64,000 nt of DNA from Candidatus Spongiihabitans sp. (lineage in GTDB: Bacteria; Pseudomonadota; Gammaproteobacteria; Arenicellales; Poriferihabitantaceae). This document shows, in pieces, positions 34,237-58,175 of this stretch. Within the stretch, counting starts at the first letter, position 1, and every line of letters starts with the position of its first letter. The position numbers were made by a program, and so were the translations under genes. The notes beneath the pieces are model-generated. The model was given only the letters and a program-made list of their open reading frames with translations, was not told the DNA's origin and made no database searches. The stretch covers positions 1,310,814-1,374,813 of the forward strand of contig OZ242212.1 of NCBI GenBank assembly GCA_965206355.1, read 5' to 3'.

Positions 34237-34263
34237 GCCCGCTTTCCCGATCGTTGGATTCCA

Positions 34264-36105: not shown

Positions 36106-36120
36106 TACAACGGTAGTACC

Positions 36121-37383: not shown

Positions 37384-37389
37384 GGATAT

Positions 37390-38424: not shown

Positions 38425-38639
38425 TGGCAGGAACCCCCAATTCCCCTCAAGTTGGTCCGTGATTTCGGTATTTTACAGCAATTTTTTGTAAATACTTGTT
38501 GTCGACAATAAGTATTTGTGCTATGTATAGGGGGCGGCATTTGCCGCCGGGCCATAATGGCGCTGGTACGTTCTCTCGGCCAACGTCTTTGGGTAATGTA
38601 CAAACGCGAATATAAATTGACCATGTGCAGGAGGAAATC

Positions 38640-39455: not shown

Positions 39456-39522
39456 GCTATCGGGCAAGTGAAATTGGACGGGGCGGACATCGCCGCCCCG
39501 AACACAGCCTAGCGTATCGTTC

Positions 39523-40182: not shown

Positions 40183-40191
40183 GGGCTGAAG

Positions 40192-40866
40192 ATGACGGAA
40201 GAAACAAGCCAGGCGGTGGTTTTTTTCACCAGTTTCCAGGCAAGCGACCTGCGATTTATGGCCGAAGCCGCCGGTCGGACGGTGTTAATTTCGGCCATTT
40301 CGATCAGTTTCGGTACGGTTTTCGGTTGCATCTTCGGGTGGATGGTGCATTCACTCAAGCTAGTCGGCAGTATCGCCCTTAATTTTGTTCTTGACATATT
40401 CCGCAGCGTACCGTTGATTATTCAGTTGATTTTGTTTTATAACTTGTTTCCATTGATCGGCGTCCACTTTGATCCTTTCGCCGCAGGAATTTTCGTTTTA
40501 ACATTCTACACATCAGCGTTGGTCGCTAATGTTGTGCGTGGCGGTATCGAATCTGTTGGACAACCCATGCGACGCGCGGCCAGGTCTCTGGGCATGAGTT
40601 ACTGGCAGGATATGTTTCACGTGGTGGCGCCGATTGGGGTGCGCGCGGTGTTTCCGGCCTGGATCGGTGTGGCGCTTGGTATACTCAAAGACAGTGCCCT
40701 GGTTTCGGTACTCGGTTATGTGGAGCTACTTCGCGCCTCGCAGATTTTGATTACACGAACCCAGGAACCTTTTCTCATTCTGGCTGTCGCCGGCGCATTT
40801 TATTTCGCGCTTTCGTTCCCTGTTTCCAGGTTCGGGATGCGTTTGGAGGCGAAGTGGCGGTCATGA
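40192..40866 (+). CDS. amino-acid ABC transporter permease
   Basis: Second permease with an EAA-like loop (AARSLGMSYWQDMFHVVAP). Confidence 0.85.
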   Translation: MTEETSQAVVFFTSFQASDLRFMAEAAGRTVLISAISISFGTVFGCIFGWMVHSLKLVGSIALNFVLDIFRSVPLIIQLILFYNLFPLIGVHFDPFAAGIFVLTFYTSALVANVVRGGIESVGQPMRRAARSLGMSYWQDMFHVVAPIGVRAVFPAWIGVALGILKDSALVSVLGYVELLRASQILITRTQEPFLILAVAGAFYFALSFPVSRFGMRLEAKWRS

Positions 40867-41585
40867 TCGAAGTGCAGGATTTACACAAATATTTTGGTGA
40901 ACTGCATGTTCTCAAAGGCATTAATGTGACCGTCGAAAAAGGTGAAGTGCTGAGCATAATCGGCGCTTCCGGATCAGGAAAATCCACCTTTCTTTATTGT
41001 ATCAATGCGCTTGAGCCGATCCAGCGAGGCGAGGTGGTTGTAGATGGCGTGTCGGTACATGCTCGCAGAACCGATATTAATAAATTGCGACAGAATCTCG
41101 GCATGGTTTTTCAGCAGTGGAACTCTTTCCCGCATCTTACCGCTCTGGAAAATGTTGCGCTTGCACCGCGCATCGTCAAGAAGAAGTCAGGAGCGGAGGC
41201 GCGCGAAATTTCCCGCAAACAACTTCAGCACGTGGGTCTCGGTGACAAGCTTAATGCGTACCCTTCAGCGCTTTCCGGTGGCCAGCAGCAACGGCTTGCG
41301 ATTGCGCGTGCGTTGGCGATGGAGCCGAATTACATGTTGTTCGACGAAGCGACTTCGGCACTTGATCCCGAACTGGTTGGTGAAGTTCTCGACACTATGC
41401 GCCTGCTTGCTGAAGAGGGTATAACCATGATTTGTGTAACCCATGAGATGGGTTTCGCGCGGGATGTATCCGATCGGATTGCATATTTTCATGAAGGAAT
41501 CATTGAAGAGATTGGACCACCCGCGCAACTTTTCACCGATCCTCAATCCGAAAACACCAAAAAATTTCTACACAATGTTCGATAA
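40863..41585 (+). CDS. amino-acid ABC transporter ATP-binding protein
   Basis: Walker [10 protein letters not shown], signature LSGGQQQR, Walker [12 protein letters not shown]. Its ATG overlaps the permease stop (ATGA). Confidence 0.9.
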
Positions 41586-41607
41586 CCGCGAGGTGGCGCA
41601 TGACGCA

Positions 41608-42714
41608 ATGAAAATCACTGGATTACGAATGCATCGCATGGACTTGCCACTCAAGGAGGGGCGATATAGTTGGGGAGATGGGAAGTTTGTCGAAGTTTTT
41701 GACAGTACGTTGGTGGTGGTCGAAACTGATGCGGGCATCGAGGGTTATGGCGAAGTATGCCCGTTGGGGCCGGTCTACTTGCCTGCTTTTGCGGCGGGCG
41801 TGCGCGCCGGCGCCGGCGAAATGGCACCACACTTGATTGGACTTGACCCCACCAATCTCACGCGGGTGAATGACACCATGGACACGGCATTGTCGAGACA
41901 TCCTTACGCCAAGTCGCCTATCGATATTGCGTGCTGGGATATTCTGGGCAAGTCACTGAGCGTCCCGGTATGCCATCTGCTGGGGGGCGAGCAGGGTGAG
42001 GCGGTCGCACTTTATCGTGCCATCAGTCAGTTGCCCGCCGATGAAATGGCCGCCAATGTCGCTTCATACCGCGAGGCAGGCTATCGAAAATTCCAGTTGA
42101 AAGTCGGTGCGCAGGCGAAAGCGGATATTCAGCGCATTCACGCTGTGAGATCAGTTTTGCATGAAGATGAGATTTTGGTCGCTGACGCCAACCGTGGTTG
42201 GCAGGCGCATAACGCATTGCGTGTGGTGAGTGCTGTCGCCGATCTGGATGTGTATATTGAGCAACCCTGTCGATCATACAAGGACTCCCTCGCCATACGA
42301 CGGCACACTAATCTTCCTTTCATACTGGACGAGTCCATCGATGGCCTGACATCGTTGTTACGCGCTTACCAAGACGGTGCAATGGACGCGGTAAATCTCA
42401 AAATATCAAAACTCGGTGGCTTGTTGAAAACACGCATTCTCCGGGATGTCTGTGTGGAGCTGGATATTCCGATGACCATAGAGGATACCTGGGGCGGGGA
42501 CATTACCACCGCCACCATCGCACATCTGGCACACTCCACCCCGCAACGATGTCGATTTAGCTCCACCGACTTCAATGACTATGTGACGGTTGCCAATGCC
42601 GAAGGTACGCCACCTCGCGTCGGTGGAACAATGATGGCGTCACGCCAGCCGGGGTTGGGGGTTGTTCCTGATTGGAAGGTGTGGGGCGAGCCGATCGGCG
42701 TTTATCGGGCATAG
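41608..42714 (+). CDS. enolase-superfamily enzyme, muconate-lactonizing-enzyme subgroup (candidate hydroxyproline(-betaine) epimerase / cis-3-hydroxyproline dehydratase)
   Basis: KxK motif (FQLKVG), metal ligands in VADANRGW / IEQPC / LDES context, and a second catalytic Lys (NLKISKLGG). ATG 41608 (MKITGLRM) is preferred over the ORF-track start, which overlaps the ATPase gene. Confidence 0.8.
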   Translation: MKITGLRMHRMDLPLKEGRYSWGDGKFVEVFDSTLVVVETDAGIEGYGEVCPLGPVYLPAFAAGVRAGAGEMAPHLIGLDPTNLTRVNDTMDTALSRHPYAKSPIDIACWDILGKSLSVPVCHLLGGEQGEAVALYRAISQLPADEMAANVASYREAGYRKFQLKVGAQAKADIQRIHAVRSVLHEDEILVADANRGWQAHNALRVVSAVADLDVYIEQPCRSYKDSLAIRRHTNLPFILDESIDGLTSLLRAYQDGAMDAVNLKISKLGGLLKTRILRDVCVELDIPMTIEDTWGGDITTATIAHLAHSTPQRCRFSSTDFNDYVTVANAEGTPPRVGGTMMASRQPGLGVVPDWKVWGEPIGVYRA

Positions 42715-42742
42715 CAAAGGGCAAACCCTTTGACTGTGTGCG

Positions 42743-43740
42743 TTAAGGTAGCAGCACCGTCGTCCCCGTGGTGCGGCGGTTTTCTAAATCTTTGTGGGCG
42801 GTTACCGCTTCGGACAGTGGGTAGGTTTGGTTGATGCGGATGCTGAGTGCGCCGGAGAGTACCGCGTCGAATACTTCGCCTGCGCGGTAGATTAATTCGT
42901 CGCGGCCGGCGGTGTAGTGAGACCTTTGCACGGAAGATGATTTCGCTTTTAGGCCAGGCAAAAACGCACGGAATGAGGGAGTTTATGCTTATAAATGACC
43001 GATTGAGTACGATTTTAACGCAGCATGGAGGTGAAATGGCTTTCGTGCAAAGGTCTCGTAGTGAAACAGTGAGGGGCGGGTCAGGTAGAGTCCGCCTTTG
43101 GTGTTCAGGATGCCGATGTCCAGGGGCTCGACCTTGCCGGAGGATTGGCCGAAAGAGACCAGGGTGCCGCGGGTTTTGAGGCAGTCCAGGGACGGCGTGA
43201 AGGTCGCCTGTCCCACCGAATCGTACACCACCGGCACGCCCGTGCCGCCGGTGATTTCTTGCACGCCCTCGACGAAGTTTTCGCGGCTGTAGTTGATGAC
43301 ATATTGGCAGCCGTTGGCCTGGGCGAGGGCGGTTTTTTCTTCGGAGCCGGCGGTGCCGATCACGGTGACGCCGAGGTGTTTGGCCCACTGGCAGGCGAGC
43401 AATCCGACTCCGCCGGCGGCGGCGTGGAACAAAATCGTCTCCCCGGCCTTGACCCGGTAGGCGCTGCGGTCGTCAATGCCGTCGGGAATTTTTACCGCCC
43501 GCGCCGCCGGCAGGTTGCGCGCTTCGCAATAGGCGCCGAGGGGCGGCGAAGCGTAGGCGACCCGCTCACCGACGCTGAAATCGCTCACACTGGCGCCGAC
43601 CTTTTCCACCACCCCCGCCCCTTCAAGGCCCGGCGTGAACGGCAGTTGCGGCGCCGCCGCGGATTCCCGGTGTTCACCGGGTACTTTCCGCGGAGCGGGC
43701 GAGCTGCCCTGCCCCGCGGATTCTTACCTGGGCGGCGTCA
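42743..43740 (-). pseudogene. qor: NADPH:quinone oxidoreductase (zeta-crystallin family) pseudogene: MITE insertion, frameshift, internal deletion, 5' truncation
   Basis: Fragments ...PQLPFTPGLEGAGVVEKVG..., ...FHAAAGGVGLLACQWAK..., ...TRPSLFHY | MITE | HYTAGRDEL...TTGTTVLLP. RGKYP lies in another frame upstream. About 18 residues expected between DDRSA and YRVKAGE are missing. There is no start codon. Confidence 0.8.
42919..43057 (+). mobile_element. 139-bp MITE, copy 2 (inside qor; TSD GTAGT)
   Basis: 5 substitutions relative to copy 1. GTAGT is present at 42914-42918 and 43058-43062. Removing the element and one TSD copy restores the Qor reading frame (SLFHYTAGRDEL). Confidence 0.9.
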
Positions 43741-43773
43741 GAGGCGACTGTCGACCGGCGACCGGCGACCAGG

Positions 43774-44722
43774 TTATTCGCCGGTGAGGGCTTTTGCACC
43801 CACCGCCGAGATCAACGCCTTGTGCTTGGCGATCTCGGTCTGGTGGTAGCGGCTCAGGGCGTCGCCCGACAGCCATTCCTCACAGGCAAGCCCGTCATCA
43901 ACGCAGAACTTTTGCCACTCGTCGGAATTAAACAGCGTCGCGAACAAATCTATGTACCACTGTTGCGCATCTTCGGACATGTCCGGCGGCCCGTTGATGG
44001 AGCGCTGCATGTAGTATTGCAGATCATGGCCGAGCTCCTTGGCGGTGGGGATGTCGGGATAGGCCGGAAGCCGCTCGGCGGTGAATTGCACCAGGGGTTT
44101 GGTGTTGCCGGCGCGGTAAAACTCGTTTTGCTCCGCCGGATTGTTCACGGTTGAGTCAATGTGGTTGCCCACCAGGTTTTTGGCCACGGTGCCGCCGCCG
44201 GGGAAAGGAATGTAGGTAACCTCATAATCAAAGTAGTCCCCCATCATCGCGGTCAGGATGGAATCTTCCTGGCCGGAGCCGGTGCCACCCACTTTCCAGC
44301 TTTTGCCGGCGGCTTTGACCGCGCCCACGTAACTGTCCAGGTCGGTGATGTCGGCGCGATCCTGATTAACCCACAGCAGGAAATTGTCCAGCGCCATGCG
44401 GCCAATGGGCGTGAAATTCCCGACATCAACACCGATGCCTTTCTGAATGATGGGCGTGGTATAGAAACTGTTCAGGGTCACCAGCACAACGTGGTCATCG
44501 CCAGCTTTGTCCTGCAAATAGCGTAGCGCTTCAGCGCCCGACCCGCCGGGTTTGTTGATCGGAATAAATGGCCGCGGCGAGAGGTTTTTCTTCTCGATCA
44601 GCCCCTGCAACAGGCGCGCGATCTGATCCGCGCCGCCGCCAGCGCCGGCCATGATGATGAGTTCAATGGGCTTTTTCGGCGACCAGTCGCTGAACGCCAG
44701 CGTTGAAAGACCCAGCCCCAGC
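43774..44722 (-). pseudogene. Bug/TctC-family tripartite tricarboxylate transporter substrate-binding protein, 5'-truncated by an IS fragment
   Basis: The frame reads ...AVALGLGLSTLAFSDQSPKKPIELIIMAGAGGGADQIARLL...KPGGSGAEAL... but the signal peptide is cut at about 44722, where IS481 sequence begins. No start codon remains. No tctA/tctB is nearby. Confidence 0.7.
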
Positions 44723-45185: not shown

Positions 45186-45324
45186 GAGACCTTTGCACGA
45201 AAGCCATTTCACCTGCATGCTGTGTTAAAATCGTACTCAATCGGTCATTTATAAGCATAAACTCCCTCATTCCGTGCGTTTTTGCCTGGCCTGAAAGCGA
45301 AATCATCTTCCGTGCAAAGGTCTC
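45186..45324 (-). mobile_element. 139-bp MITE, copy 3 (inverted; 50 nt upstream of the first YcaO gene)
   Basis: The reverse complement differs from copy 1 at about 4 positions. It is flanked by ATGA on both sides (4 unambiguous nt). Confidence 0.85.
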
Positions 45325-45374
45325 ATGAAATTAACCGCGCCGTCGCACCCTATTGGCGCGCGCATATAACCACC

Positions 45375-47789
45375 ATGTTTTATAAATCAAAAAATGATGA
45401 AGGCCTGATTCAAGTTCCTGCGGTCACCCCTCACGTCGAGGTCATCACTTTCGACAACGCCGAAATGAATATCGGCGATGATTTTCCCGAAGAGGAACTA
45501 CGTAATATGAATCTATGCTTTTGTGTCGACGCACAGGGCGCTGGGTATGGGCTACTGGGGCCGTTGCATAGAGATATCATGTGCCTGGTGGATGGTTCCC
45601 GCACTCGCATGGAAATCGTCGAGGCGCTCCAGAAAATCGGCCACGATGCTATGGATACGAATACCATGCTAGCCAGTCTGGCTTACCGGTTTTTGCTGGT
45701 GTCAGCGGAGCATTCACTCCAGCCCGAACAAGCGGCGTTGTTTTCTGCACTGGGCATCACGCCGCGCTGCGCGGAAGAGTGCATGGCCGAATTGAAAATT
45801 TTTATTCACAGCATCAGCGCGCACCGCGATGGCGCGGGCATTGTAACCGAAGCATTGTCCAATCTAGGTTGCGGAAACCGCGCCATTGTCGATGCCGAAG
45901 ATAGCGCCGATGTCGTTATCGTGTTGGTTGATGACTACCTGCAAACAGAACTGGAAACCATCAACCAGCGCTTTCTCAAAAACCGGAAAAAATGGTTGCC
46001 ACTGAAATTGAGCGGCACTGAAGGCCTGGTCGGCCCGCTGTTTAATTTGCGGAAAAATGGATTTTGCATGACGTGTTTGCAGACTAACTTGCGCAACAAT
46101 CGCGAACTTCGCAGTTTTTTTGGGCACAACCGCGACGGCGCTGACATCGCCAAAGAGAGAATCTTTGAATCATCGCTTGCCCGTGGCCGCGCGGTTGAAG
46201 CTCTGTTGCAGATGATTAAATCCCTGCTGGCCGACGCTGATCAGTATATCGATGTCAATACCGAAGGACATTTTCAAAGCATTGAACATTACGTCTTGTC
46301 GAGTAACACGGTTATCAACACCCAATCCTGGCACTATGTGAATAAAAGGCCACAGTGCGCCTGTTGCGGCGACCCGCAAACGATCAACAATGAACGCCCG
46401 CCTAATCCGGTGGATTTATCTCAAGGGTCAAAAGAATCTATGTTCACCAGCGGCGGCATGAAAGCTCGGTCGCCGCTACAGACCTGGAACAAATATCAAC
46501 ACTTGATTTCTCCGCTAACCGGTGTTGTAACAGGCGTTGTTCGATCTTCTCCGCCGGACGATTCGTGGCTTCACGTTTATTGGGCAGGCAGCAATTTGGC
46601 TATCGTTAATAAACTTTTCCACTCTCTCAGCACCAGCCTGCGAACCAAGAGCGCAGGCAAGGGGCGGTCGGACTCCCAGGCCAAGGTCAGTGCCTTGTGC
46701 GAAGCCCTGGAACGCAATAGCGGGGTCTATGACGGCACTGAAATTCATCGCCGCGCGCGATTTATCGATTTTGACGAGGGCGAAGCTCTGCGGCCTAACG
46801 ACATCATGCTATTCAGCGATAATCAATATAAGATGCGCGACCAGGTGGCGTCAAAGAAATTTCGTTTCTACCGACTTCCGGAGTTGGATTTCGACGAGAA
46901 CGTGGAAGTCGAATGGACACCATTCTGGTCGGTAAGCCGCAAGCAGCATGTCTGGATGCTGTCTGCTCAGGCTTATTTCTCTTACTATTCAAGCAATATG
47001 GAACTCAACAAATTCATGGGGAATCCGGATTCCAATGGTGCCGCATCGGGAAACACCATTGCCGAGGCATTCGTGCAAGGTTTTATGGAATTAGTGGAGC
47101 GCGATGCCTTCGCCATCTGGTGGTATAACCGTTTATCCTATCCGGAAGTCGATATCGCCAGTTTCATGGACCCATTCTTGACTCAATTGGTGGAACACTA
47201 CCGCACCGAATACAATCGAAATGTATGGGTGCTTGATATTACTCATGACTTTGGCATTCCGGTTTTTGTCGCCGTGTCCGAGCGCTTTGACAAGAAAAAA
47301 CGTGATATCTGCGTGTCCGCTGGCGCCCATTTTGATCCGCATATTGCATTGTTGCGCGCGATTTGTGAACTCAATCAATACGCATCGGTGGTATTGCGTT
47401 CCACCGATGATGTGTCCAGTTATACTTATTTCGATCAAGAATGCCTTGACTGGTGGCACAACGCCACCTTACAAAACAATCCGTATCTTTTGCCCGACAG
47501 CAAGGCGGCCAAAACCACCAAGGCGGATTATCCTGTCATCGCACGCACCCAGGCTGAAGAATCACAGGCCTGCATTGATGCAGTCCATACCAAAGGCATG
47601 GAGATTCTGGTGATGGACCAGACCAAACCCGATATCGGGTTGCCAGTGATCAAGATACTGGTGCCAGGGATGCGCCATTTCTGGGCCCGTTTTGCCCCGG
47701 GACGACTCTACGATGTGCCTGTGGAGATGGGAAAACTGAGCAAACCCACCCCTGAACAGGATTTGAATCCCACCCCCGTATTCATCTAA
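45375..47789 (+). CDS. fused E1-like/RRE plus YcaO azoline-forming heterocyclase (PatD/TruD-like), copy 1
   Basis: N terminus VPAVTPHVEVITF, wHTH-like LVDGSRTRMEIVEAL, and a Cys quartet (FCMTCL ... CACCGD). YcaO core KSAGKGRSDSQAKVSALCEALERNSG, ELVERDAFAIWWYN, and C-terminal PGRLYDVPVEMG...NPTPVFI. The ORF-track start at 45282 lies inside the MITE and is rejected. Confidence 0.85.
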   Translation: MFYKSKNDEGLIQVPAVTPHVEVITFDNAEMNIGDDFPEEELRNMNLCFCVDAQGAGYGLLGPLHRDIMCLVDGSRTRMEIVEALQKIGHDAMDTNTMLASLAYRFLLVSAEHSLQPEQAALFSALGITPRCAEECMAELKIFIHSISAHRDGAGIVTEALSNLGCGNRAIVDAEDSADVVIVLVDDYLQTELETINQRFLKNRKKWLPLKLSGTEGLVGPLFNLRKNGFCMTCLQTNLRNNRELRSFFGHNRDGADIAKERIFESSLARGRAVEALLQMIKSLLADADQYIDVNTEGHFQSIEHYVLSSNTVINTQSWHYVNKRPQCACCGDPQTINNERPPNPVDLSQGSKESMFTSGGMKARSPLQTWNKYQHLISPLTGVVTGVVRSSPPDDSWLHVYWAGSNLAIVNKLFHSLSTSLRTKSAGKGRSDSQAKVSALCEALERNSGVYDGTEIHRRARFIDFDEGEALRPNDIMLFSDNQYKMRDQVASKKFRFYRLPELDFDENVEVEWTPFWSVSRKQHVWMLSAQAYFSYYSSNMELNKFMGNPDSNGAASGNTIAEAFVQGFMELVERDAFAIWWYNRLSYPEVDIASFMDPFLTQLVEHYRTEYNRNVWVLDITHDFGIPVFVAVSERFDKKKRDICVSAGAHFDPHIALLRAICELNQYASVVLRSTDDVSSYTYFDQECLDWWHNATLQNNPYLLPDSKAAKTTKADYPVIARTQAEESQACIDAVHTKGMEILVMDQTKPDIGLPVIKILVPGMRHFWARFAPGRLYDVPVEMGKLSKPTPEQDLNPTPVFI

Positions 47790-47812
47790 AAATTGCGCCG
47801 AGCGAACAGTTG

Positions 47813-50236
47813 ATGACTCCTCAATCCACTCGCGACATGCGCAAACACGGCAGTGACGCCGGCATTGTGCAGTTGCCAAAAATTGCGCCTCATCTGCATA
47901 TCGATATTGTTGAGATCGACCCCTCTGGCGCCGGCCCTGATAAGTCAATGTTGATAACCTCGGAATACGATAAGAACTATTACCAGATTTATCCGATAGC
48001 AGAATTAGGCGAAATGCTTTTGGCCGCGATTGATGGCGATGCAAGTGCAACGCAGCTGATTCAAAGAATCACCTCCTCGTCACGCTATAGCCATCTGGAG
48101 GTTGCCGCTATGCTGTCGCTGCTTTCCAACGCCGACATCATCATTTCGGGGCGATACGACATGCCTGACGGACAAGCTGCGTTGTGGCTAAATATGGGAT
48201 TTACCCCTGCCCTTGTGGAAAACACAACGAGTCGGTTGCGGGTTGCGATTGTCGATAAGGCGGAGTCTCCCGCCTACCAACAAGAGTTGGGAACGATGCT
48301 GCGCAGTCTTGGCGTGAACACGAGCGATGGAGATGTCTTGGACAGCGATTTGACAGTCGTGGTGGTTGATGATTATTTGCATAAATCGTTGAATAAAATA
48401 AATCGAGATTATCTGAAAAAAAAGATCCGATGGTTGCCGGTTAAATTAAGCGGTAATGTTCATTGGGCCGGCCCCGTATTCAATCAGCCGAACCGCGTTA
48501 AAACTGATTCCGAACTTGTTTTGGAAAAACCGTACATGGCGAAAGATTTCTGCTGGTATTGCCTGGCGGAGCGAATAGAAAACGGTCGTCAAATAGAGCA
48601 GGCGAAATATCGACAAACCGACCTCAAGCCCCGCCCTGCTTCGAAAATGTATACTCCGGCCCTGCAAGCGAGCGCCTACAACATCACGCTGGAGATAATC
48701 AAATACCTGTTGCACGCTGATCAAGAAACAGAATTCGATGTTCACCCATTCTGCTCATCATCGTGGGTGTGGGATCAGATAAGTAATCGATCCGACTGGC
48801 ACATTGTCAATAAAAATCCCGCCTGCGTGGTTTGCGAGCAACCATCAACCGACGACATTGATCCGATACATCTCGATGATGTTGAGATCGGAGAGCGTTA
48901 TGTAAGCAGTGGCTGGCGCATCGTGCCTATCGAACAAACTTTTGAGAACTATCGCCACCTCAACAATGCCTATACGGGTGTTATCGACCTGTTTGAGGAT
49001 ATTCAAAACCCAGTCGATGATTTCTGCTTTGTCTCTGAATCAAGCAATAACATCTCGACAAAAAGCAACGCCATATTCTTTCCCTTGATGAGCGTCAGGA
49101 TGCGCAATGCGGGGAAAGGAATCACACCTGCTTCGGCACGCACCGGCGCCTTGTGCGAATCCATCGAGCGCTATAGCACCAGCTTGCACGGCGCTGAAAT
49201 CCGTAGACGCGCCCGCTATCAAGATTTTCCCGCAGGGCAAGCATTGATGCCAAACTGCTTTATGAATTTCAGCGATAAACAATTTGTGCAGAATCAGCAG
49301 GGCAACCAAGATGCCAGTGGCAATCCATTTGTCAACATTCCTGCCCGACTAACTGAATATGAATACTGCGAGTGGTCGCCTGTTTGGTCTTTTACGCAAC
49401 AACAAACCATCTGGACGCCGACCCAATCGCTGTATTTCGGCTATCCATATAAAAATCGCTGGATCGCCATTCCGGATACCAACGGAGTCGCCGCTGGCAA
49501 CACCCGAACAGAGGCATTTGTACAGGCATTTCTAGAGGTTCTGGAGCGCGATGCCGTCAGTATTTGGTGGTATAACCAACTGCAATGTAGAGAACTTGAT
49601 CTGGATTCGATTGATATTCCCTTCATCCGCCGGGTTGTCGATCAATACGAAAAGAAAAATAGGCGCTGTTGGGTATTGGATATCACCTTTGATCTGGGGG
49701 TTAATATTTTTGTGTTCCTGAGCCGTAAAAATTCTTCCGCCACCAAGGGCGAAGAAATTTGTCTGGGGTGCGCCGCTCATTTTGATCCGGAGATCGCCCT
49801 GACCCGAGCCATATGCGAACACAGCCAACTCTGGACAATGATTGAAAATCGGCGCGAAAAAACCTTTTTTAAGAAGTTATCGCCAGCCTTCTCAGCTTGG
49901 CTACAAAATGCCACAACTATGGCGAAATCACTCAAGTATTTGTTGCCTGCGGGTAAAAAGCAGTGGTGTGATTATCCGTTGAATTTAGAATTTAACCTGC
50001 TACAACAACGCCAGGCTTGCCTGAAGATGGTGGAAGAAAATGGCTGGCAACTGTACCTGGCCGACTTCACCCGCCCCAGCATAGGGTTGTCGGTCATTCG
50101 GGTGATGATTCCTGAGTTGCGTAGTATGCACCGGAGGCTTGGTCCTGGCAGGCTATATGATGTTCCGGTAGAAATGGGGCTGCTCAAGTGCGCAAAAATC
50201 GAAGAGGAAATGAACGAGATTGATATTTTTATTTGA
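47813..50236 (+). CDS. fused E1-like/RRE plus YcaO heterocyclase (PatD/TruD-like), copy 2
   Basis: Same architecture as copy 1: LPKIAPHLHIDIVEI, IDGDASATQLIQRI, FCWYCL ... PACVVCE, NAGKGITPASARTGALCESIERYS, EVLERDAVSIWWYN, PGRLYDVPVEMG. It starts 21 nt after copy 1 ends. Confidence 0.85.
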   Translation: MTPQSTRDMRKHGSDAGIVQLPKIAPHLHIDIVEIDPSGAGPDKSMLITSEYDKNYYQIYPIAELGEMLLAAIDGDASATQLIQRITSSSRYSHLEVAAMLSLLSNADIIISGRYDMPDGQAALWLNMGFTPALVENTTSRLRVAIVDKAESPAYQQELGTMLRSLGVNTSDGDVLDSDLTVVVVDDYLHKSLNKINRDYLKKKIRWLPVKLSGNVHWAGPVFNQPNRVKTDSELVLEKPYMAKDFCWYCLAERIENGRQIEQAKYRQTDLKPRPASKMYTPALQASAYNITLEIIKYLLHADQETEFDVHPFCSSSWVWDQISNRSDWHIVNKNPACVVCEQPSTDDIDPIHLDDVEIGERYVSSGWRIVPIEQTFENYRHLNNAYTGVIDLFEDIQNPVDDFCFVSESSNNISTKSNAIFFPLMSVRMRNAGKGITPASARTGALCESIERYSTSLHGAEIRRRARYQDFPAGQALMPNCFMNFSDKQFVQNQQGNQDASGNPFVNIPARLTEYEYCEWSPVWSFTQQQTIWTPTQSLYFGYPYKNRWIAIPDTNGVAAGNTRTEAFVQAFLEVLERDAVSIWWYNQLQCRELDLDSIDIPFIRRVVDQYEKKNRRCWVLDITFDLGVNIFVFLSRKNSSATKGEEICLGCAAHFDPEIALTRAICEHSQLWTMIENRREKTFFKKLSPAFSAWLQNATTMAKSLKYLLPAGKKQWCDYPLNLEFNLLQQRQACLKMVEENGWQLYLADFTRPSIGLSVIRVMIPELRSMHRRLGPGRLYDVPVEMGLLKCAKIEEEMNEIDIFI

Positions 50237-50986: not shown

Positions 50987-52021
50987 TTAGAGACCGCTGG
51001 CGCTAAGACGAAACAACGCCTTTTTGTAATTTTGTTGCACTTCGGGGTTAAGGAACGCATTTTCACTGAGAGCAAGCATATAGCGCTCAGGATAACGATA
51101 AGGGATTTCGTCTGGGGAATCTCCTCTGATAATTCGCACTGCCAGTTTCAGCGCCCCGGCACCTTGTTCATATGGAGATACACCAACTGAGAGCAAAATG
51201 CCGTCTTCCGAATTGAAGACATTCATTCCAATCACCGCCGCATTGCTATTGACCTGAGTCCAGGCACCGACTTCTTCAGAATCAACACGGCTACCGTTCT
51301 CATCCAACAGCTGACGGTATCCGGAAACCAGAATATAGTCGTAGTCACCAGAATTTTCCAGGATAAATTTTTGCCACTGAGCGTAATCAGCCACGAACTC
51401 TCCCCCACGATAATCGATGTTTCCCCAGTCCTGCGCGGCTAGAAAATCAGAATTTTTGTGACTCGAGGTGGAAGTATCCGCCAAAAATAACACGGATACG
51501 GGCGCCTCAATTTCTTGCAGTCTGTTCAATTCGGCAATAACCAGCTTCAAGGATGTCAGTGGTTTGTGTTCAAAAATGCCTGTTATGTTATCGGCCCCTG
51601 AATACCCATATTTTTCAACCGAGGAATTTACCCCGGAAAATACAACATCGATATCTGGGTGGTTCAGATAATGTTTGGAAATGATGTTTTGAGCGGAATC
51701 ATCCACAGCGATAATGACCTGCGGATCAAATGCTTCCACATATGTAACAAAGTCTTGTTCGACTCGTTGTTTGTTTTTTGGGTAATCCAAATTACGCGTA
51801 TTCATATAAAAATAACGTATTTTTACATTATATTTCAATTGTTTGAAAGCAGACAGCAAACTTTGATCGATCAGATTTGTCCACACATAATCTTTTCCAT
51901 AACTGTGCAATACCATAATACGCGGAGTTTCACTGACTATGCTGACATACAAAGATCCCAGTAACATGCCGCACACAACCAGCGTTGCTACATATGTTTT
52001 TTTAATTACCATAAAGCCCAC
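50987..52021 (-). CDS. membrane-anchored periplasmic protein resembling the ABC_sub_bind (COG2984) substrate-binding fold
   Basis: One N-terminal TM helix (YVATLVVCGMLLGSLYVSIV), then RIMVLHSYGKDYVWT...DVVFSGVNSS...NITGIFEH, as in the periplasmic domains of uncharacterised ABC SBPs and sensor proteins. No partner permease or ATPase is adjacent. Confidence 0.45.
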   Translation of the reverse strand: MGFMVIKKTYVATLVVCGMLLGSLYVSIVSETPRIMVLHSYGKDYVWTNLIDQSLLSAFKQLKYNVKIRYFYMNTRNLDYPKNKQRVEQDFVTYVEAFDPQVIIAVDDSAQNIISKHYLNHPDIDVVFSGVNSSVEKYGYSGADNITGIFEHKPLTSLKLVIAELNRLQEIEAPVSVLFLADTSTSSHKNSDFLAAQDWGNIDYRGGEFVADYAQWQKFILENSGDYDYILVSGYRQLLDENGSRVDSEEVGAWTQVNSNAAVIGMNVFNSEDGILLSVGVSPYEQGAGALKLAVRIIRGDSPDEIPYRYPERYMLALSENAFLNPEVQQNYKKALFRLSASGL

Positions 52022-52188: not shown

Positions 52189-55100
52189 TCATGCCATATC
52201 GGCTGAGGGGATCAAGGGCGCACGAAACGGATTCAGGTTTTTACGCGCGTGAACACTCAACAACAACAGCCCCATATCCGCCTGTCCATGAATGGCGCCC
52301 ACCCGAAAATTATCGTCCGCCCAGCAATCGGGAAACCAGCACTGACTGCTACGCTTGCGCTGAACAATCTCATTGACTAAGTTATCCACGGCCTCCCGAG
52401 GAGAATTAACGCCTGGTACGGCCAATAACTGGTAAAGATGATCCATCAGAAATTCTCCAGACTTGGTCAACAACTGTTTGGCCGTGTATTCATGCGCCTG
52501 CTGTTCCGGCATTCCCCCGGTATGATGTTCGCCGGAAGCATTGCGCGCCTTCTCTTCCTGCAAATCCGCTATAAAATTCCGTAGTTTCAAGTAGCCCGGA
52601 TGCTCCACGAATAACGGCCAGTTGTCTTGCATGTATTGGTTGACCAGGTACATGCCAGAAGTGGCATTCGGCAGAAACGCATTCGCATATTTGCGATAGG
52701 TGTCGGTTTGTTCCGGACTTGCCTGCAAGGATTTGGTCTCGATCAATTCCAGTATTTGTTCAATCCATGGAGTCAATATTTCGTTGTTAAAAAGCAATTC
52801 CAACTCAGTAAAACGGTATAAAAGGCCACTGATGCCATGCCGATAATCCACAAAAAGGCTATCCGTATCGCGCATCTCTTTCAGCAAATCTACCGTCAGA
52901 TGTTCTACATTTGCAGTCAGGTTGTTATTCATTGCTGGTTTAACCCGCGCCAGACTGCACAACGCGGCCAGCTTTGATCCGTGCAAACTGATTACGCCAT
53001 ATGTTTTGGCTGTTTCATATTCAAACCCTTCAATAGCGTCTCCAGTCATGTATTCATAGCACTTGCGCAACGCCTTGATGTTGTCGTTTTTTGGGGCGGC
53101 ATATTGCTGTAGCGTTGCGAGGAAAACAATAATGCCACTGCAACCGTCAAAATTCAGTAGCAAACGTTGCGGGATGCGGATGTTGTTTAACTGTAGTCTG
53201 CCGATGGCGAGGTAATCCTTCAAATTTTCTGTTTGATTGATATTGGATGCCAGTTGGTTGCCTATTTCCTGAGCCAGGGCCACGAACTCTCCATCCGTTA
53301 CCGACTGTGATGCGTTGCTTACATCGTTGCTCCGCCGCCACGGGCGCCGGGGGTTGTCGGGTCGCGTCGAAAACAATGCTTTGATGTAGCTTATCTGGCG
53401 ATCAGTCTCATTCAGCGAGTAAGCGTAATTTCGGGCTATCTTGGAAAGCGTGGTTTTTTTGAAAAAATTTTCTTCGGTGGCAACATTCGCAGTATTGAAA
53501 AGCAGCAGGCTGTTGGTTTGTAATTCAAACAACGGGACATCATTGTTCCATATATCATTTCTTATGCCGTCGATAATGGTGATCGGAAAGCCTTTAAATA
53601 TCGAGAAAAACCTGTCCAGCGCAATACTTGCGCGTACGCCGTCATTCCCGCAATCACCGAAAAACCTGGCTATCAGCGAATAGCATTGCCAGGTATCGAC
53701 GACGATATGACGAAAACGAGCTTGGTCGATACGTTGATAGAACTGCTGTAGTGCTTCACGCCCAATATCCGATTCCAACAACTTTCCCATGCGCCTGTAG
53801 CCATCGATAAAAATTTCCAGAAAGTCGTTCATGTCCTGGAACTCACCTTGATAAAAAGGCGCATAATCGCTGGCCTCGAAATCGTCATATAAATTATCTT
53901 TTTTCGAAAACGGAACCTGTTGCTTTCCCGGAGGTGTTGTTACGCTGATATCAATCCCATCCGCCAACTTAAAGCTCACCGACCCCGGCATGAGCAGTGG
54001 CAACATGCCCACCATCTGCATTTTTCTAAATTGCACGACGTGTTCATCTTGCTCGTCGGTGTTCCAGAGATCTTCGAAACTGTTGCCGACAATTGTTTCA
54101 TAATCAATAAAATAGGGCATGTCGGCACAAGCGATTAGGTTGTCATACCAGAAATCATTGCCATTCAATAACTGTAGCACAAACAACCATCCCCCCAAGC
54201 GCCGGTAAAAAGTCTCCACTTCCGACAGCTGACCGCACGCTTGCCAGCGAACCCGTTGCTCCCAGCCATACCCCTGGCAATACATAAACGCGGGCGTCAA
54301 CGGCACAAACTCACTGTGCGATGGATGCAGGTCTTGCAGTAATAATCCGATTGCCCAAGTGCCTATCAGGTTTTTTGGCTTGTAGACAACATCGCCGCGG
54401 CTGGTCTCGAAAATAGCCACTGAACGCCCGCCGCGGTGCGGGTCCCCCAAACCGCAGCGTAGCCGTGAAACGACAATACCGTCATCGGTTTGCGCTTGCG
54501 GGCGCAACATCTGAACTGTGAGTTGAGATAGGTCAGCGGTAAATCTGTGCAGCATTTCCTCCGTGGCTATCTGCCAGCGAAACACCAGATTGCCAATAAT
54601 TTTGACCAGAATCGGTTGGCGTTCAAAAGCCGCTTGCCAAAACCCCAATGTTTCAAATAATTGTTGTCGATAATCGTCTTCGCCCTCGGGAAAACTGCCG
54701 GGATACGCATTCAATACGCCAAACAGTGGCGGCGCAAGCCGCGACATAAGGTTTTCAAGCAAATCGTTCACGCTGGCTTCGGTCAGCTGAATCCCGGCTG
54801 ATGCCAACTGATGTTGTTGAGCGTTGAGCCACGGGCGACACAATTCCGCCCAGGCGACAGCCAGCGTCAAGTGGGGTTTTTTTTCAGCGTACTCCGGTTT
54901 AATTCTTTCATCGTGTTGCCGCCAACGTTCATATAAATCAATGAATGTTTTTGCCCAGTCGGGCAAATACTCCGGGGCGGATACATCCACATCGCGCATG
55001 GATTGATACCACTGCTGTTGATCCAGCCCACGGCGTCGTAAAATTTCCCCCCCCTCCGGCGCGGGTCGGAACAAGGCGCTCCAACTATCGCATCGGTTTT

Positions 55101-55230
55101 GTAAAACAACCGCATCTTGCTCGGCGCTGAATGTAAATGCCCCGGACTTGATGCGTTCCTCGGGGAAACTTGCCCGGGCAATCCATTGATACAGGCGCGA
55201 TGCGTCCTGTCGGCTCGCGCTACTTGTCAT
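52189..55230 (-). CDS. LanM-like (class II lanthipeptide synthetase-like) protein: DUF4135-type dehydratase domain plus a degenerate LanC-like domain
   Basis: 1013 aa. N-terminal domain motifs GDPHRGGRSV, VVYKPKNL, GYGWEQ, FYRRLGGWL and NDFWYDNLIACADMPYFIDYE. The C-terminal alpha-toroid-like repeats (NFDGCSGIIVFL, DYRHGISGLLYRF, AIHGQADMGLLLL) lack recognisable WCxG / CHG zinc-ligand motifs. Confidence 0.75.
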   Translation of the reverse strand: MTSSASRQDASRLYQWIARASFPEERIKSGAFTFSAEQDAVVLQNRCDSWSALFRPAPEGGEILRRRGLDQQQWYQSMRDVDVSAPEYLPDWAKTFIDLYERWRQHDERIKPEYAEKKPHLTLAVAWAELCRPWLNAQQHQLASAGIQLTEASVNDLLENLMSRLAPPLFGVLNAYPGSFPEGEDDYRQQLFETLGFWQAAFERQPILVKIIGNLVFRWQIATEEMLHRFTADLSQLTVQMLRPQAQTDDGIVVSRLRCGLGDPHRGGRSVAIFETSRGDVVYKPKNLIGTWAIGLLLQDLHPSHSEFVPLTPAFMYCQGYGWEQRVRWQACGQLSEVETFYRRLGGWLFVLQLLNGNDFWYDNLIACADMPYFIDYETIVGNSFEDLWNTDEQDEHVVQFRKMQMVGMLPLLMPGSVSFKLADGIDISVTTPPGKQQVPFSKKDNLYDDFEASDYAPFYQGEFQDMNDFLEIFIDGYRRMGKLLESDIGREALQQFYQRIDQARFRHIVVDTWQCYSLIARFFGDCGNDGVRASIALDRFFSIFKGFPITIIDGIRNDIWNNDVPLFELQTNSLLLFNTANVATEENFFKKTTLSKIARNYAYSLNETDRQISYIKALFSTRPDNPRRPWRRSNDVSNASQSVTDGEFVALAQEIGNQLASNINQTENLKDYLAIGRLQLNNIRIPQRLLLNFDGCSGIIVFLATLQQYAAPKNDNIKALRKCYEYMTGDAIEGFEYETAKTYGVISLHGSKLAALCSLARVKPAMNNNLTANVEHLTVDLLKEMRDTDSLFVDYRHGISGLLYRFTELELLFNNEILTPWIEQILELIETKSLQASPEQTDTYRKYANAFLPNATSGMYLVNQYMQDNWPLFVEHPGYLKLRNFIADLQEEKARNASGEHHTGGMPEQQAHEYTAKQLLTKSGEFLMDHLYQLLAVPGVNSPREAVDNLVNEIVQRKRSSQCWFPDCWADDNFRVGAIHGQADMGLLLLSVHARKNLNPFRAPLIPSADMA

Positions 55231-55240
55231 TAATAATTAT

Positions 55241-56821
55241 TTACAATGCTGTGGGCGATAATGCAGCGCCATGAATAGCCGCGCTGGCCGGTAAGTCGAT
55301 ATCGTCAAAATTGAAATTTTCTGGCCGGCTACCCAACATAAACTCGCCGATGTTGCATTCTATATGAGGGGCGTTGCCAGTTGCTTGACAGAATAGTTCG
55401 GTATTGCCTGACCCCAACCCGCAGCCTGCCAGCCCCATCGCCGTGGCATTCAAATAAAATGTCTGGTAGACAACGCCGGTATTTCGCAACATCGTGCTGT
55501 ATGCGATATTGTGGTATTTCCAACTGACTCTTTGAAAACGAGACGCGATATGTACGACTGTTTGCGGCCGGACGATTTGAGCACAACTCACAAATGCCGA
55601 TTGTATCAGCCCCTCCGTGTAGTCATTCTTGTCGCTCAATTTGACCAGCTCATGGGTTGACGGCGAGTAATAATAGATACCAGGGTTGATGCCATGCGCC
55701 CGATCCACAGTGAGATAAAATTCCAATTCATAACTGGCCCCTCCAGTTGGATAGGGGCGCCAGGCCAAACCCATGTCAGTCTGCTGGTCGGGATTCTTCG
55801 CGCTGGCCACGCGCGTGTCGCATTCATAGAGAAGGCGCCCAGTGCGGAAAAAGAATTCACCCAACTGTTTCAAAGAAACGGGCGATTCTTCGTTGTAGGC
55901 GCGAAGACTGGCGCGTTGGATAACCAGACTGGTTAAACTTTTATCATTTGCCGCCAGGTACTGTAATTCGGGCTTGTATAGCGCGATTCGTTCGCCGTCC
56001 GGCACTGGCTTGACCGCGGGCTGTGGGTCAATCAAATTAACAAAAGGAAAGGCGCCGCCAAAATTAAAACCGTAGTTGTAGCTGAGTCGGCTGTTCGCAT
56101 GGGTTAGCAAATCATGGAAATCCCATTGCTGAATGGCGTTGTCGCCCTCCTCCAGCCGAGTTGGCAGGTGAGTCGAATTCTTGTTCACCGAAATAACGAA
56201 TTGTTCGTGATACAGTACATTGACCAGACAGCGAAAACCTTCAAACAAATCATTATCGTTGCCACAGGCAGATTGAATTTGCTGCAAATCCGTTCCAAAA
56301 GCCAACTCGAACAAGAGTTTTTGCACGGCTTTTTCCCGGATGACAAAGCGCTTGTCTCTGAGTGGCATCGACAACAACAACTGGTCATCATCCCGATGCA
56401 GATAACAAAAACGCGAGATCGTGATTTTTCCGTTTTCCGGTAGATTGTTCGGCTTCGACATATCCGGCAACAACTTACCAACATTGCAATACTCAATTTC
56501 CGCCAGCAATCTATTGCGCGGACACGCCACGCCAATCACGATTAGATTTTTTACGATAAAATCCGCGGTCTGCAACAGGCCGAAATGACAATCGTTTTCG
56601 GTATCCAACTGCTGACGCACGGCGCTAACGGGCACTTGGCGGCGCTGCTGCGCCAACCAGCTCAGCGCTTTATTCAGGGATTTTGCGACCGGTATTTTGT
56701 TGTGAAAGTCGCCACGTTTGATTTCAACTTCATTGGCATCGGGGCAGGATGTGATTTGACAGTGACTGTCCAGTCTGGCGGTTGCCAGCGGCTGTTTCAT
56801 TAAATCCGTGATAAATGTCAT
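55241..56821 (-). CDS. SagB/ThcOx-type FMN-dependent dehydrogenase (azoline oxidase family) with a long N-terminal extension
   Basis: C-terminal half WRPYPTGGASYELEFYLTVDRAHGINPGIYYYSPSTHELVKL plus a nitroreductase-fold tail. About 250 N-terminal residues have unknown function. Confidence 0.8.
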   Translation of the reverse strand: MTFITDLMKQPLATARLDSHCQITSCPDANEVEIKRGDFHNKIPVAKSLNKALSWLAQQRRQVPVSAVRQQLDTENDCHFGLLQTADFIVKNLIVIGVACPRNRLLAEIEYCNVGKLLPDMSKPNNLPENGKITISRFCYLHRDDDQLLLSMPLRDKRFVIREKAVQKLLFELAFGTDLQQIQSACGNDNDLFEGFRCLVNVLYHEQFVISVNKNSTHLPTRLEEGDNAIQQWDFHDLLTHANSRLSYNYGFNFGGAFPFVNLIDPQPAVKPVPDGERIALYKPELQYLAANDKSLTSLVIQRASLRAYNEESPVSLKQLGEFFFRTGRLLYECDTRVASAKNPDQQTDMGLAWRPYPTGGASYELEFYLTVDRAHGINPGIYYYSPSTHELVKLSDKNDYTEGLIQSAFVSCAQIVRPQTVVHIASRFQRVSWKYHNIAYSTMLRNTGVVYQTFYLNATAMGLAGCGLGSGNTELFCQATGNAPHIECNIGEFMLGSRPENFNFDDIDLPASAAIHGAALSPTAL

Positions 56822-56990: not shown

Positions 56991-57377
56991 TTAGCTACTG
57001 CCGGCAGTTCCCGCACTGCCCACGCTACCCACACAGCCACCGGATGAAGCGGTTGATGTGAATGTGCCAAGTGTTGACGCGGAGCCAGCGGTGCCGACGG
57101 TCCCCGCGGAGCCGGTTTTTCCGGCGGCTTGAATCTGGTTCAAATCACTCGCGGAGAGCTGGTGATCTGCCGGAAGATGCGGCGGCATTTGCACGTAGGT
57201 TGTATCTTGGGTTGAGGTTATCACTCTGATCTCCGGCGCATCGCCTCCCCCGAAGAGGTTGTCATAACCGATCTGCGCCAACGCATTCGTATCATGCTCT
57301 CGTAACTGTTGGCGAAACTCAGGATCGTGCATCAATTGCAGTCCGGCATCGGGACTCATATCAGTTTTCGTATTCAT
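56991..57377 (-). CDS. RiPP precursor peptide A (NHLP-type leader; 42-aa G/S/T/A-rich core)
   Basis: Leader ...DPEFRQQLREH...EIRVITSTQDTTYVQMPP...LNQIQAAG. Core KTGSAGTVGTAGSASTLGTFTSTASSGGCVGSVGSAGTAGSS. An SD-like GAGG lies upstream of the ATG. Confidence 0.8.
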   Translation of the reverse strand: MNTKTDMSPDAGLQLMHDPEFRQQLREHDTNALAQIGYDNLFGGGDAPEIRVITSTQDTTYVQMPPHLPADHQLSASDLNQIQAAGKTGSAGTVGTAGSASTLGTFTSTASSGGCVGSVGSAGTAGSS

Positions 57378-57430: not shown

Positions 57431-57781
57431 TTACGCCGAGCCGGCGGTGCCGGCGGTGCTTGCGGAACCCGCGCTACCCACGGTTGAAGTGAGGGTGCTG
57501 ATACTGCTTGCTGTCGTCGCAGTACCAACGCTACCGTTGGTGTTGCCCGCCGCTTGAATGGAAAGTAATTCCTCGGAGCTGATCGTGGAAAGGTGCTCAA
57601 CCTGTGCAAGCGGGACATACATCGTGTCGGGACCATTGATCACCAGTTTGACTTCAATCTCCGAATCCGCGGCAATAATCTCGTTGTCAATGGCATACTG
57701 TCTGGGATCGTTGCGAATGTCTCGACGCGTATCCGGATCAAGCATGGATTGTGTTAATGAAGAATCTGTTAAAGTATTCAT
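57431..57781 (-). CDS. RiPP precursor peptide B (NHLP-type leader; 37-aa core without Cys)
   Basis: Leader ...EIEVKLVINGPDTMYVPL...LLSIQAAG. Core NTNGSVGTATTASSISTLTSTVGSAGSASTAGTAGSA. AGGAG lies 6 nt upstream of the ATG. Confidence 0.8.
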   Translation of the reverse strand: MNTLTDSSLTQSMLDPDTRRDIRNDPRQYAIDNEIIAADSEIEVKLVINGPDTMYVPLAQVEHLSTISSEELLSIQAAGNTNGSVGTATTASSISTLTSTVGSAGSASTAGTAGSA

Positions 57782-57809: not shown

Positions 57810-58175
57810 CTAGGCGGAACCAGCAGTGCTTGCGGAACCAGCGGAACCACCTGTTGACAATGTGGTATTGGCTGTACCCACCGTGCTGGCGCTGCCAGCG
57901 CACGCTATGGTACTGGCCCCGCTACCCGCCGCTTGTATCTGGGCCAGATGATTTTCATCCAACGCATGCGCGTTGCTGATTTCCGGAAAAACAATATACA
58001 TCGTGTCAGCGGTGTTGGTTACCACCTTGAATTCCTCATTGCCACTTAACTCGGACAACGGGTGGCCTTGGGATTGCATCTCGGCATAAGCCGCTTTGGG
58101 GTCGTCAAGATACTTCTGCCGCACAACCGGGTCGGCCATCATTGAAATAGTGTCTTGGATTTGTTGCTTATTCAT
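57810..58175 (-). CDS. RiPP precursor peptide C (NHLP-type leader; 37-aa core)
   Basis: Leader ...DPVVRQKYLDDP...EFKVVTNTADTMYIVFP...LAQIQAAG. Core SGASTIACAGSASTVGTANTTLSTGGSAGSASTAGSA. GAGG lies upstream of the ATG. Confidence 0.8.
   Translation of the reverse strand: MNKQQIQDTISMMADPVVRQKYLDDPKAAYAEMQSQGHPLSELSGNEEFKVVTNTADTMYIVFPEISNAHALDENHLAQIQAAGSGASTIACAGSASTVGTANTTLSTGGSAGSASTAGSA

Follow-up and report, generated by a model that had tools for sequence, protein, structure and literature searches.

The question raised by this locus is what a LanM-like enzyme may do once its zinc ligands are gone and its kinase loop departs from the consensus. The gene lies in a 64,000-nucleotide stretch of DNA from Candidatus Spongiihabitans sp. 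(assembly GCA_965206355.1, contig OZ242212.1, positions 1,310,814 to 1,374,813), which we refer to as the window and in which positions are counted from its first letter. An earlier note, made from the sequence alone, had drawn attention to positions 52189-55230. The interval is filled exactly by one open reading frame (ORF) of 1013 codons on the minus strand. Our answer is that this gene very probably encodes a LanMbC-type kinase-lyase with a zinc-free toroid that serves a dehydrazole pathway, in which a peptide made on the ribosome and modified after translation (RiPP) receives dehydroalanine (Dha) next to azoles. A 2023 paper (Pei, Zhu and Nair, Nat Commun; PMC10676384) described the dehydrazole pathway and the LanMbC enzymes. 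What we observed directly is the domain architecture, the conservation of residues, the loss of the zinc site, the synteny of the cluster and the kinship with the clade of the characterised enzyme CcaM.

Family assignment, catalytic loop and zinc site

All of the landmarks on which the earlier note had based its assignment to the LanM-like dehydratases were found in the protein (GDPHRGGRSV at residues 262-271, VVYKPK at 281-286, GYGWEQ at 320, FYRRLGG at 341 and PYFIDYE at 372), and the assignment held. The Pfam family DUF4135 (PF13575) matched with E=2.9e-56, and a HMMER search of the PDB sequences returned LicM2 (E=4e-19) and CylM (5dzt, E=2e-9). An AlphaFold2 model of the full-length protein, built on 24 relatives, had a predicted local distance difference test score (pLDDT) of 85.5 and a predicted template-modelling score (pTM) of 0.88. 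In Foldseek, this model aligned end to end with LicM2 (E=3e-24, TM 0.59/0.64, 1015 aligned columns) and over the whole length with CylM (E=3e-20). The membership of the protein in the LanM family is far beyond chance. The canonical models, on the other hand, fit it poorly. TIGR03897 (LanM) scored 260.5 bits, below its cutoff of 304, and covered profile positions 73-729 of 932 only, and PF05147 (LanC-like) scored 20.4 bits, below its cutoff of 23.2, over the first 156 of 350 positions only. A profile built on the family of the window protein separated that family (482 bits or more) from canonical LanMs (371 bits or less).

In place of the expected D-x-H-x-E-N catalytic loop, the protein reads D-F-W-Y-D-N at residues 359-364, as had been noticed earlier. 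The HMMER alignment sets this loop opposite D347-L-H349-Y-E-N352 of CylM and sets I-D376-Y-E-T opposite I-D364-N-E-T; the positions of the elimination motif were read from the columns of a MAFFT alignment. No departure from D-F-W-[YF]-D-N is seen among the 24 close relatives or within a second clade, made up of proteins of about 840 amino acids, and the loop of a Kitasatospora clade is D-[LM]-W-A-D-N, whereas D-x-H-x-E-N was found in all canonical LanMs sampled. Residues invariant over the three clades (20-60% identity) include K284, D359, W361, D363, N364, D376, E378, R507, T513, W514, Y517 and W965, a set that covers the phosphorylation residues K274, D347, N352 and D364 of CylM as well as its elimination residues R506 and T512. 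Judged by this conservation, the change of His to Trp and of Glu to Asp in the loop is a family signature and not decay. The possibility raised earlier that the loop is defective was therefore given up, as the Trp and Asp are invariant across the family, and the reading of the protein as a decayed pseudo-enzyme was dropped on the same pattern. In CylM, the H349A variant reached near-full modification slowly, within 10 h, and D347A and D364A were inactive (PMC4550811). Since H349A still modifies its substrate, loss of the loop His is compatible with dehydratase activity.

The C-terminal domain gave the second part of the answer. Among the 24 full-length relatives (30-62% identity), no Cys or His of this domain is conserved. 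Canonical LanMs from the same search all have WCxG and, about 45 residues on, CHG; in the window protein and its relatives these columns are gapped or filled with unrelated sequence. The absence of the zinc triad that the earlier note had claimed is thus borne out, and proper alignment, which it had named as the way to find an intact Cys-Cys-His triad or a canonical loop after all, turned up neither. The two segments that it had quoted, QCWFPDCW (residues 963-970) and IHG (980-982), are both present. The Cys pair of the former is replaced by Arg, Gln, Ser or Thr in other family members, and His981 of the latter varies across the family (H/Y/M/G). The equation of IHG with the CHG site did not stand. 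A local hhalign comparison of the C-domain profile with canonical LanM C-domains (probability 94.5%) covered only about the first 185 columns, that is, the first three Gly-rich repeats. A forced global profile-profile alignment was used to place CHG and WCxG, with low confidence in the second half. In this alignment, the canonical CHG falls near residues 924-932 (SGEFLMDHL), and the segment GAIHGQADMGLLLL of the window protein, in which IHG lies, falls on the last Gly-rich repeat (PGLMxGxAGIG in canonical LanMs). Independently, a BLAST alignment to the CcaM clade, taken jointly with the published alignment of CylM and CcaM in PMC10676384, leads to the same placement.

The fold itself is kept. 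When the C-terminal domain was modelled alone (pLDDT 85.3, pTM 0.89), the top ranks in Foldseek held MadC, LanCL2, GCR2, LanCL1 and NisC, which are class I or eukaryotic proteins, and the top matches also included CuvL and SalKC (class III) and LicM2 and CylM (class II). Matches of classes I, II and III were alike in TM score (about 0.46-0.54); the LanMbC C-domain is labelled in PMC10676384 as a zinc-independent cyclase type of class III (LanKC-type). As LanC-family folds are the best matches, the alpha/alpha-toroid is retained. Together with precursor cores that hold 1, 0 and 1 Cys, in agreement with the count of 0-1 given in the earlier note, the loss of the zinc triad supports the claim made there that thioether formation is neither possible nor needed.

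Compared with CylM (5dzt) and LicM2 (6st5), the window protein has the same two-domain fold over about 1000 aligned columns and the same lipid-kinase-like dehydration domain with the same Lys, Asp, Asn, Asp, Arg and Thr. Unlike them, it has a D-x-W-x-D-N loop, no Cys-Cys-His site, no GxAHG acid motif and no Cys-bearing substrates, and it no longer has the Gly-rich motifs in repeats 4-6 of the toroid. What separates it from a canonical LanM is then the TIGR03897 cut-off, the Cys-Cys-His site, the D-x-H-x-E-N loop and Cys-bearing cores.

Kinship with CcaM and the gene cluster

The characterised enzyme for comparison is CcaM from the carnazolamide pathway of Chryseobacterium carnipullorum. According to PMC10676384, ATP and Mg are required by CcaM, its only substrate is the azole-containing peptide, and it dehydrates only the Ser that precedes an azole; the leader is not needed, the zinc-less C-domain is required in cis, and no lanthionine is formed. 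A word-indexed profile search missed the Chryseobacterium clade to which CcaM belongs. We reached it through an exhaustive search of cluster representatives, BLAST of the fragments printed in the paper and then a homologue search seeded with P0162. Four fragments from Supplementary Fig. 4 of PMC10676384 could be placed on representatives, namely Cystobacter S9PA60 on P0157 (91% over the fragment), A0A2N3KQU4 on P0124 (98%), Kitasatospora E4NFR7 on P0044 (93%) and A0A2D8UIJ3 on P0162 (73%), and all four representatives carry the loop Trp. The Chryseobacterium clade is 74-92% identical to the printed fragments of CcaM and Chryseobacterium, and its loop is DFWLDN in 13 of 13 clusters. In a member from Chryseobacterium sp. 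MYb264 (locus L014), the cca cluster is reproduced gene for gene, with a precursor, a YcaO, a ThcOx-type dehydrogenase, a 476-amino-acid protein in the position of CcaD, the LanM-like gene, an S8 peptidase and a methyltransferase.

BLASTP aligned the window protein to this clade (P0238) at 25% identity with E=1e-33 over 637 amino acids, and a second alignment brought out a C-terminal WFxDxWAxD...HG motif. The D-F-W-x-D-N loop, the T-W elimination motif and this C-terminal motif are common to CcaM and the window protein, and both pathways have YcaO and ThcOx-type dehydrogenase neighbours and NHLP-type precursors with Ser/Thr-rich cores. The features that place the protein among the LanMbC enzymes are thus a DUF4135 domain with catalytic residues, a zinc-less LanC fold, synteny with YcaO and dehydrogenase genes, NHLP-type precursors and kinship with CcaM.

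The genes around it (Table 1) fit the same pathway. On the minus strand, the order of transcription is the C39 ATP-binding cassette (ABC) transporter, ABC subunit 2, three precursors, the ThcOx/SagB dehydrogenase, the LanMbC gene, a 344-amino-acid protein and a small nitroreductase. Two fusions of about 800 amino acids, each with a TOMM leader-binding (E1-like) part and a SagD-type YcaO, lie on the plus strand and converge on this operon. The YcaO and dehydrogenase context is decisive for the identity of the enzyme and was missed in the first reading; the adjacent cyclodehydratases and dehydrogenase point to a dehydratase that depends on azoles, of the LanMbC type already published. The precursor cores contain little besides Gly, Ser, Thr and Ala; Ser+Thr make up 43-50% of them, and every core has four Ser-(Ser/Thr/Cys) dipeptides. 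The matches of the precursors to the NHLP-leader hidden Markov model are weak (21.7 bits, below cutoff).

The arrangement is conserved in other genomes. The closest relatives of the window protein, at 46-62% identity, belong to other uncultured Gammaproteobacteria. Scanning genomes turned up six related loci (L001-L006) in uncultured marine Gammaproteobacteria, including an Arenicellales metagenome-assembled genome (MAG) at 58% identity. In each of the six, the LanMbC gene has the ThcOx/SagB gene immediately upstream, and YcaO, YcaO, ThcOx/SagB and LanMbC are collinear on one strand in L003-L006. A small nitroreductase lies 3' of the LanMbC gene in five of the six loci and was not detected in L003; it adjoins the LanMbC gene in L001, L004, L005 and L006, and in L002 a homologue of the 344-amino-acid ORF intervenes, as in the window. 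The Arenicellales MAG locus (L001) has at least six NHLP-type precursor genes, in tandem or dispersed, with related cores (14104-14409, 20128-22166), which indicates that precursors have multiplied in that clade. Two more distant clades with the loop Trp also adjoin YcaO and a ThcOx/nitroreductase gene, and an azole-forming YcaO together with a ThcOx-type dehydrogenase was present in 10 of the 10 Trp-type loci inspected.

Differences from the known clusters should also be considered. Unlike the cca cluster, the window carries a pair of E1-fused YcaOs, three precursors and, in addition, a small nitroreductase, lacks the radical S-adenosylmethionine epimerase, the S8 protease and the methyltransferase, and has a C39-ABC exporter pair where cca uses the S8 leader protease. 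A sister cluster is that of Ca. Thioglobus depicted in PMC10676384, which, like the window, has two YcaO/dehydrogenase pairs, one LanMbC and several NHLP precursors. Its precursors A1-A3 align with those of the window in leader and core (…AAG / …TAGS.GT..ST.S..GSAGS…), and its LanMbC (P0022) is a full-length relative of the window LanMbC at 31% identity. The cluster differs in a Nif11-type fourth precursor, of which none was seen in the window, and its published description is bioinformatic only.

Table 1 Features of the window. Positions are those of the window; residue numbers are those of the encoded proteins.
Feature	Position	Strand	Basis
LanMbC-type gene, DUF4135 dehydratase and zinc-less LanC-like domain, 1013 amino acids	52189..55230	-	ORF, Pfam, AlphaFold2/Foldseek
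DUF4135 kinase/lyase (dehydration) domain, residues 206-570	53521..54615	-	Pfam; alignment to CylM and LicM2
Nucleotide-binding segment GDPHRGGRSV ... VVYKPK, which includes K284 (CylM K274)	54373..54447	-	motif; conservation
Catalytic loop D359-F-W361-Y-D363-N364 (CylM D347-x-H349-x-E-N352)	54139..54156	-	HMMER alignment; conservation
I-D376-Y-E378-T, Mg-binding Asp (CylM D364) and Glu	54094..54108	-	HMMER alignment; conservation
R507-H-I-V-V-D-T513-W514, phosphate-elimination residues (CylM R506/T512), then family-invariant Trp	53689..53712	-	MAFFT columns
C-terminal LanC-like alpha/alpha-toroid, residues 640-1013, without Cys-Cys-His site	52192..53313	-	hhalign; conservation; domain model
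I-H-G in last Gly-rich repeat, not the CHG equivalent	52285..52293	-	profile alignment; conservation
ThcOx-domain and SagB-type flavin mononucleotide (FMN) dehydrogenase, 526 amino acids, directly upstream of the LanMbC gene	55241..56821	-	PF22767 E=4e-17; PF00881; TIGR03605 E=1.9e-40
Precursor A3, 128 amino acids, NHLP-like leader ending IQAAG, 42-residue Gly/Ser/Thr/Ala core, 1 Cys	56991..57377	-	
Precursor A2, 116 amino acids, leader ending IQAAG, 37-residue core, no Cys	57431..57781	-	
Precursor A1, 121 amino acids, leader ending IQAAG, 37-residue core, 1 Cys	57810..58175	-	TIGR03793 21.7 bits, below cutoff
NHLM-type export ABC transporter subunit 2, 1013 amino acids	58465..61506	-	TIGR03797 E=2.4e-203, 677.4 bits, below curated cut-off 709.4
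NHLM-type ABC transporter with C39 leader peptidase, 728 amino acids	61506..63692	-	TIGR03796 862 bits, above cutoff; Peptidase_C39 E=3e-32
344-amino-acid protein between the LanMbC gene and the nitroreductase	50987..52021	-	weak ABC_sub_bind match only
Small nitroreductase-family flavoprotein, 225 amino acids	50291..50968	-	PF00881 E=6e-27
E1-like/YcaO fused cyclodehydratase 1, given as the longest ORF because the start codon is uncertain	45282..47789	+	TIGR03604 247.6 bits, above cutoff; TIGR03882; PF02624 E=7e-84
E1-like/YcaO fused cyclodehydratase 2, start codon uncertain	47810..50236	+	TIGR03604 215.2 bits; TIGR03882; PF02624 E=7e-76

Some neighbouring features are recorded here in their own right. 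Residues 1-354 of ABC subunit 2 have no Pfam or NCBIfam assignment, and its TIGR03797 match begins at residue 355. The 344-amino-acid protein has a hydrophobic N-terminus; homologues occur in L001 (37% identity) and L002 (61%) and are absent from L003-L006. The 225-amino-acid nitroreductase lacks the ThcOx N-terminal domain and could be a second azoline dehydrogenase or have another role such as reduction. A scan for tRNA genes and a GC profile of the window gave no sign of the RiPP cluster itself as a recent island. Directly upstream of the cluster, in the interval 31434-44000, a block with a GC content of 0.55, compared to 0.44-0.49 in the preceding 32 kb, comes after an rve-type integrase/transposase (31434-32519). 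This block holds hydroxyproline catabolism genes (DHDPS-like, DAO oxidoreductase, proline-racemase family, cis-3-hydroxy-L-proline dehydratase, ABC transporter) and may be an acquired island. In the clade of about 840 amino acids, the LanMbC (P0028) has a shortened C-terminal domain, and about ten ORFs of 82-131 amino acids flank it on both sides in locus L012 (3685-5838, 13383-15464); these are likely to be a large precursor set.

Proposed pathway and alternative readings

In the pathway that we propose, the three NHLP-type precursors, with their IQAAG leaders and cores of 37-42 residues, would be bound by the two E1-fused YcaO cyclodehydratases. The ThcOx/SagB flavoprotein, perhaps with the small nitroreductase, would oxidise the azolines to (methyl)oxazoles, and to thiazoles at the rare Cys. 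The LanMbC would then phosphorylate the Ser that directly precedes an azole and eliminate the phosphate to give Dha, with D359 as the predicted base, K284, N364 and D376 as candidates for ATP and Mg binding, and R507 and T513 as candidates for elimination. No thioether would be made, and the toroid would be a required substrate-binding or structural partner and not a cyclase. Finally, the C39-peptidase ABC transporter would cleave after the AAG motif and export the product. Azole dependence, leader independence, the order of the steps and the residues modified are all proposed by analogy with the published biochemistry of CcaM. The chemical outcome would match that of the goadsporin and thiopeptide pathways, in which YcaO and dehydrogenase also make azoles before Ser is dehydrated on the azole peptide. 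Those pathways, however, use split LanB-type dehydratases that depend on glutamyl-tRNA, in contrast to the ATP-dependent LanM-type kinase-lyase of the window (as summarised from PMC10676384).

Several points weigh against this proposal. Identity between the window protein, known here from its sequence, and the CcaM clade is no more than about 25%. The loop of CcaM itself (WP_073335633.1) was read by proxy, from 13 close members of its clade and an orthologue in a cluster of the same type. The cores in the window are nearly Cys-free and very Gly/Ala-rich, unlike the Cys-rich core of CcaA, so that the number and position of the azoles and Dha residues are a guess. Lastly, the YcaO genes are on the opposite strand and convergent with the LanMbC operon, and co-regulation is hence assumed from the conserved neighbourhood only.

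In one alternative, the enzyme is an azole-independent dehydratase, guided by the leader to unmodified Ser and Thr, with the YcaOs acting separately or later and with Dha or dehydrobutyrine (Dhb) perhaps reduced by the small nitroreductase. Such an enzyme would agree with the conservation of every dehydration residue, with a small flavoprotein gene downstream in five of six loci and with the low identity to CcaM (25%). The shared loop, T-W motif and C-terminal WFxD motif of the CcaM clade nevertheless speak against it, as do the YcaO and ThcOx-type dehydrogenase in every one of the ten Trp-type loci inspected. There is also a published logic, given in PMC10676384, by which azole dependence prevents YcaO and dehydratase from competing for the same Ser/Thr. 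We consider the azole-independent enzyme unlikely.

Another alternative takes up the phosphotransferase and scaffold roles suggested in the earlier note: crippled by the exchange of His for Trp, the protein would be a kinase only, with phospho-Ser/Thr as the final product, or a non-catalytic scaffold that holds the peptide for the YcaOs. The two departures of the loop from the LanM consensus and a zinc-less toroid with no obvious chemistry of its own would be in line with this. Yet K284, D359, N364, D376, R507 and T513 are invariant in three clades, which argues for selection on catalysis including elimination; the loop is shared with the CcaM clade, and CcaM dehydrates actively (PMC10676384); and CylM H349A still dehydrates. 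A kinase or scaffold role is thus very improbable, and of the roles suggested in the earlier note it is that of a dehydratase only, with catalytic residues conserved and the zinc triad gone, that describes the protein best. A canonical class II lanthipeptide synthetase making (methyl)lanthionine rings with non-standard metal ligands, which the overall LanM architecture and fold might suggest, is scarcely credible and is effectively refuted by the sequence, given the lack of conserved C-domain Cys or His, the cores with 0-1 Cys, the TIGR03897 and PF05147 scores below cut-off and the profile gap described above.

The Trp/Asp loop as a signature of the LanMbC type

The LanMbC-type dehydratase reading is further supported by the distribution of the loop. 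When 1.84 billion cluster representatives were searched exhaustively with HMMER, about 135 full-length ones scored above the range of canonical LanMs. For 260 full-length sequences with a detectable loop, we classified the residues at CylM positions 349 and 351 together with the presence of a zinc site, defined as the strict pattern WCxG…C[HC]G. Trp/Asp without the zinc pattern was found in 161 sequences, and Trp (with any residue at 351) with the zinc pattern in 0. His/Glu was found with the zinc pattern in 46 sequences and without it in 12, and Thr/Asp without it in 15. The zinc pattern was present in 53 sequences in total, with His at position 349 in 51, Phe in one and the loop undetected in two. 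All of the Trp/Asp-type proteins (161 of 161), the CcaM clade included, thus lack a zinc site. In these sequences the Trp/Asp loop is a strict signature of LanMbC, and a second invariant Trp (W514) follows the elimination Thr. The text of PMC10676384 and its supplement, figures apart, mention neither a loop Trp nor the DxH loop.

The Trp never occurs with a zinc site, the ten Trp-type loci inspected have an azole-forming YcaO with a ThcOx dehydrogenase, and the related Thr-type proteins occur with YcaO and TfuA. For these reasons we suggest, tentatively, a part for the Trp residues in recognising the azole. W361 might recognise the azole that follows the target Ser, and W514 might contribute; this somewhat doubtful idea could explain both why the enzyme acts only on azole peptides and how phosphate is eliminated without an enolate.

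Two other groups were seen in this survey. Zinc-less LanM-like proteins of the Thr type (D-F-T-x-D-N) are encoded in L017 (10001-13150, P0181), L018 (10001-13090, P0168) and L015 (3237-6419, P0184). Their clusters have a Nif11 precursor, a short YcaO with TfuA (a thioamide-forming pair), a glycosyltransferase, an ADH_N-like gene and ThiF/rhodanese with ThiS, and have no ThcOx/SagB dehydrogenase. They may represent a separate, possibly uncharacterised, thioamide/dehydroamino-acid RiPP family. P0074, P0079 and P0083, otherwise canonical LanMs with the D-F-H-F-E-N loop and WCYG, read SLNQGDLG at the CHG site; here the zinc site is lost only in part and in another manner, with no relation to the Trp-type family.

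These findings leave current understanding in place. Work published in 2023 already covers the enzyme class with its zinc independence and its function, as well as a sister cluster, and the window gene adds a member to the family. It adds an uncharacterised dehydrazole branch from uncultured marine Gammaproteobacteria, with two YcaOs and nearly Cys-free cores rich in Gly, Ser, Thr and Ala, the predicted products of which are poly-oxazole/dehydroalanine peptides. For genome mining the sequence comparison offers a rule, by which D-x-W-x-D-N together with a C-terminal WFxD...G, and without WCxG/CHG, marks the azole-dependent LanMbC type. The same rule draws attention to two Trp residues by which LanMbC enzymes may recognise azoles.

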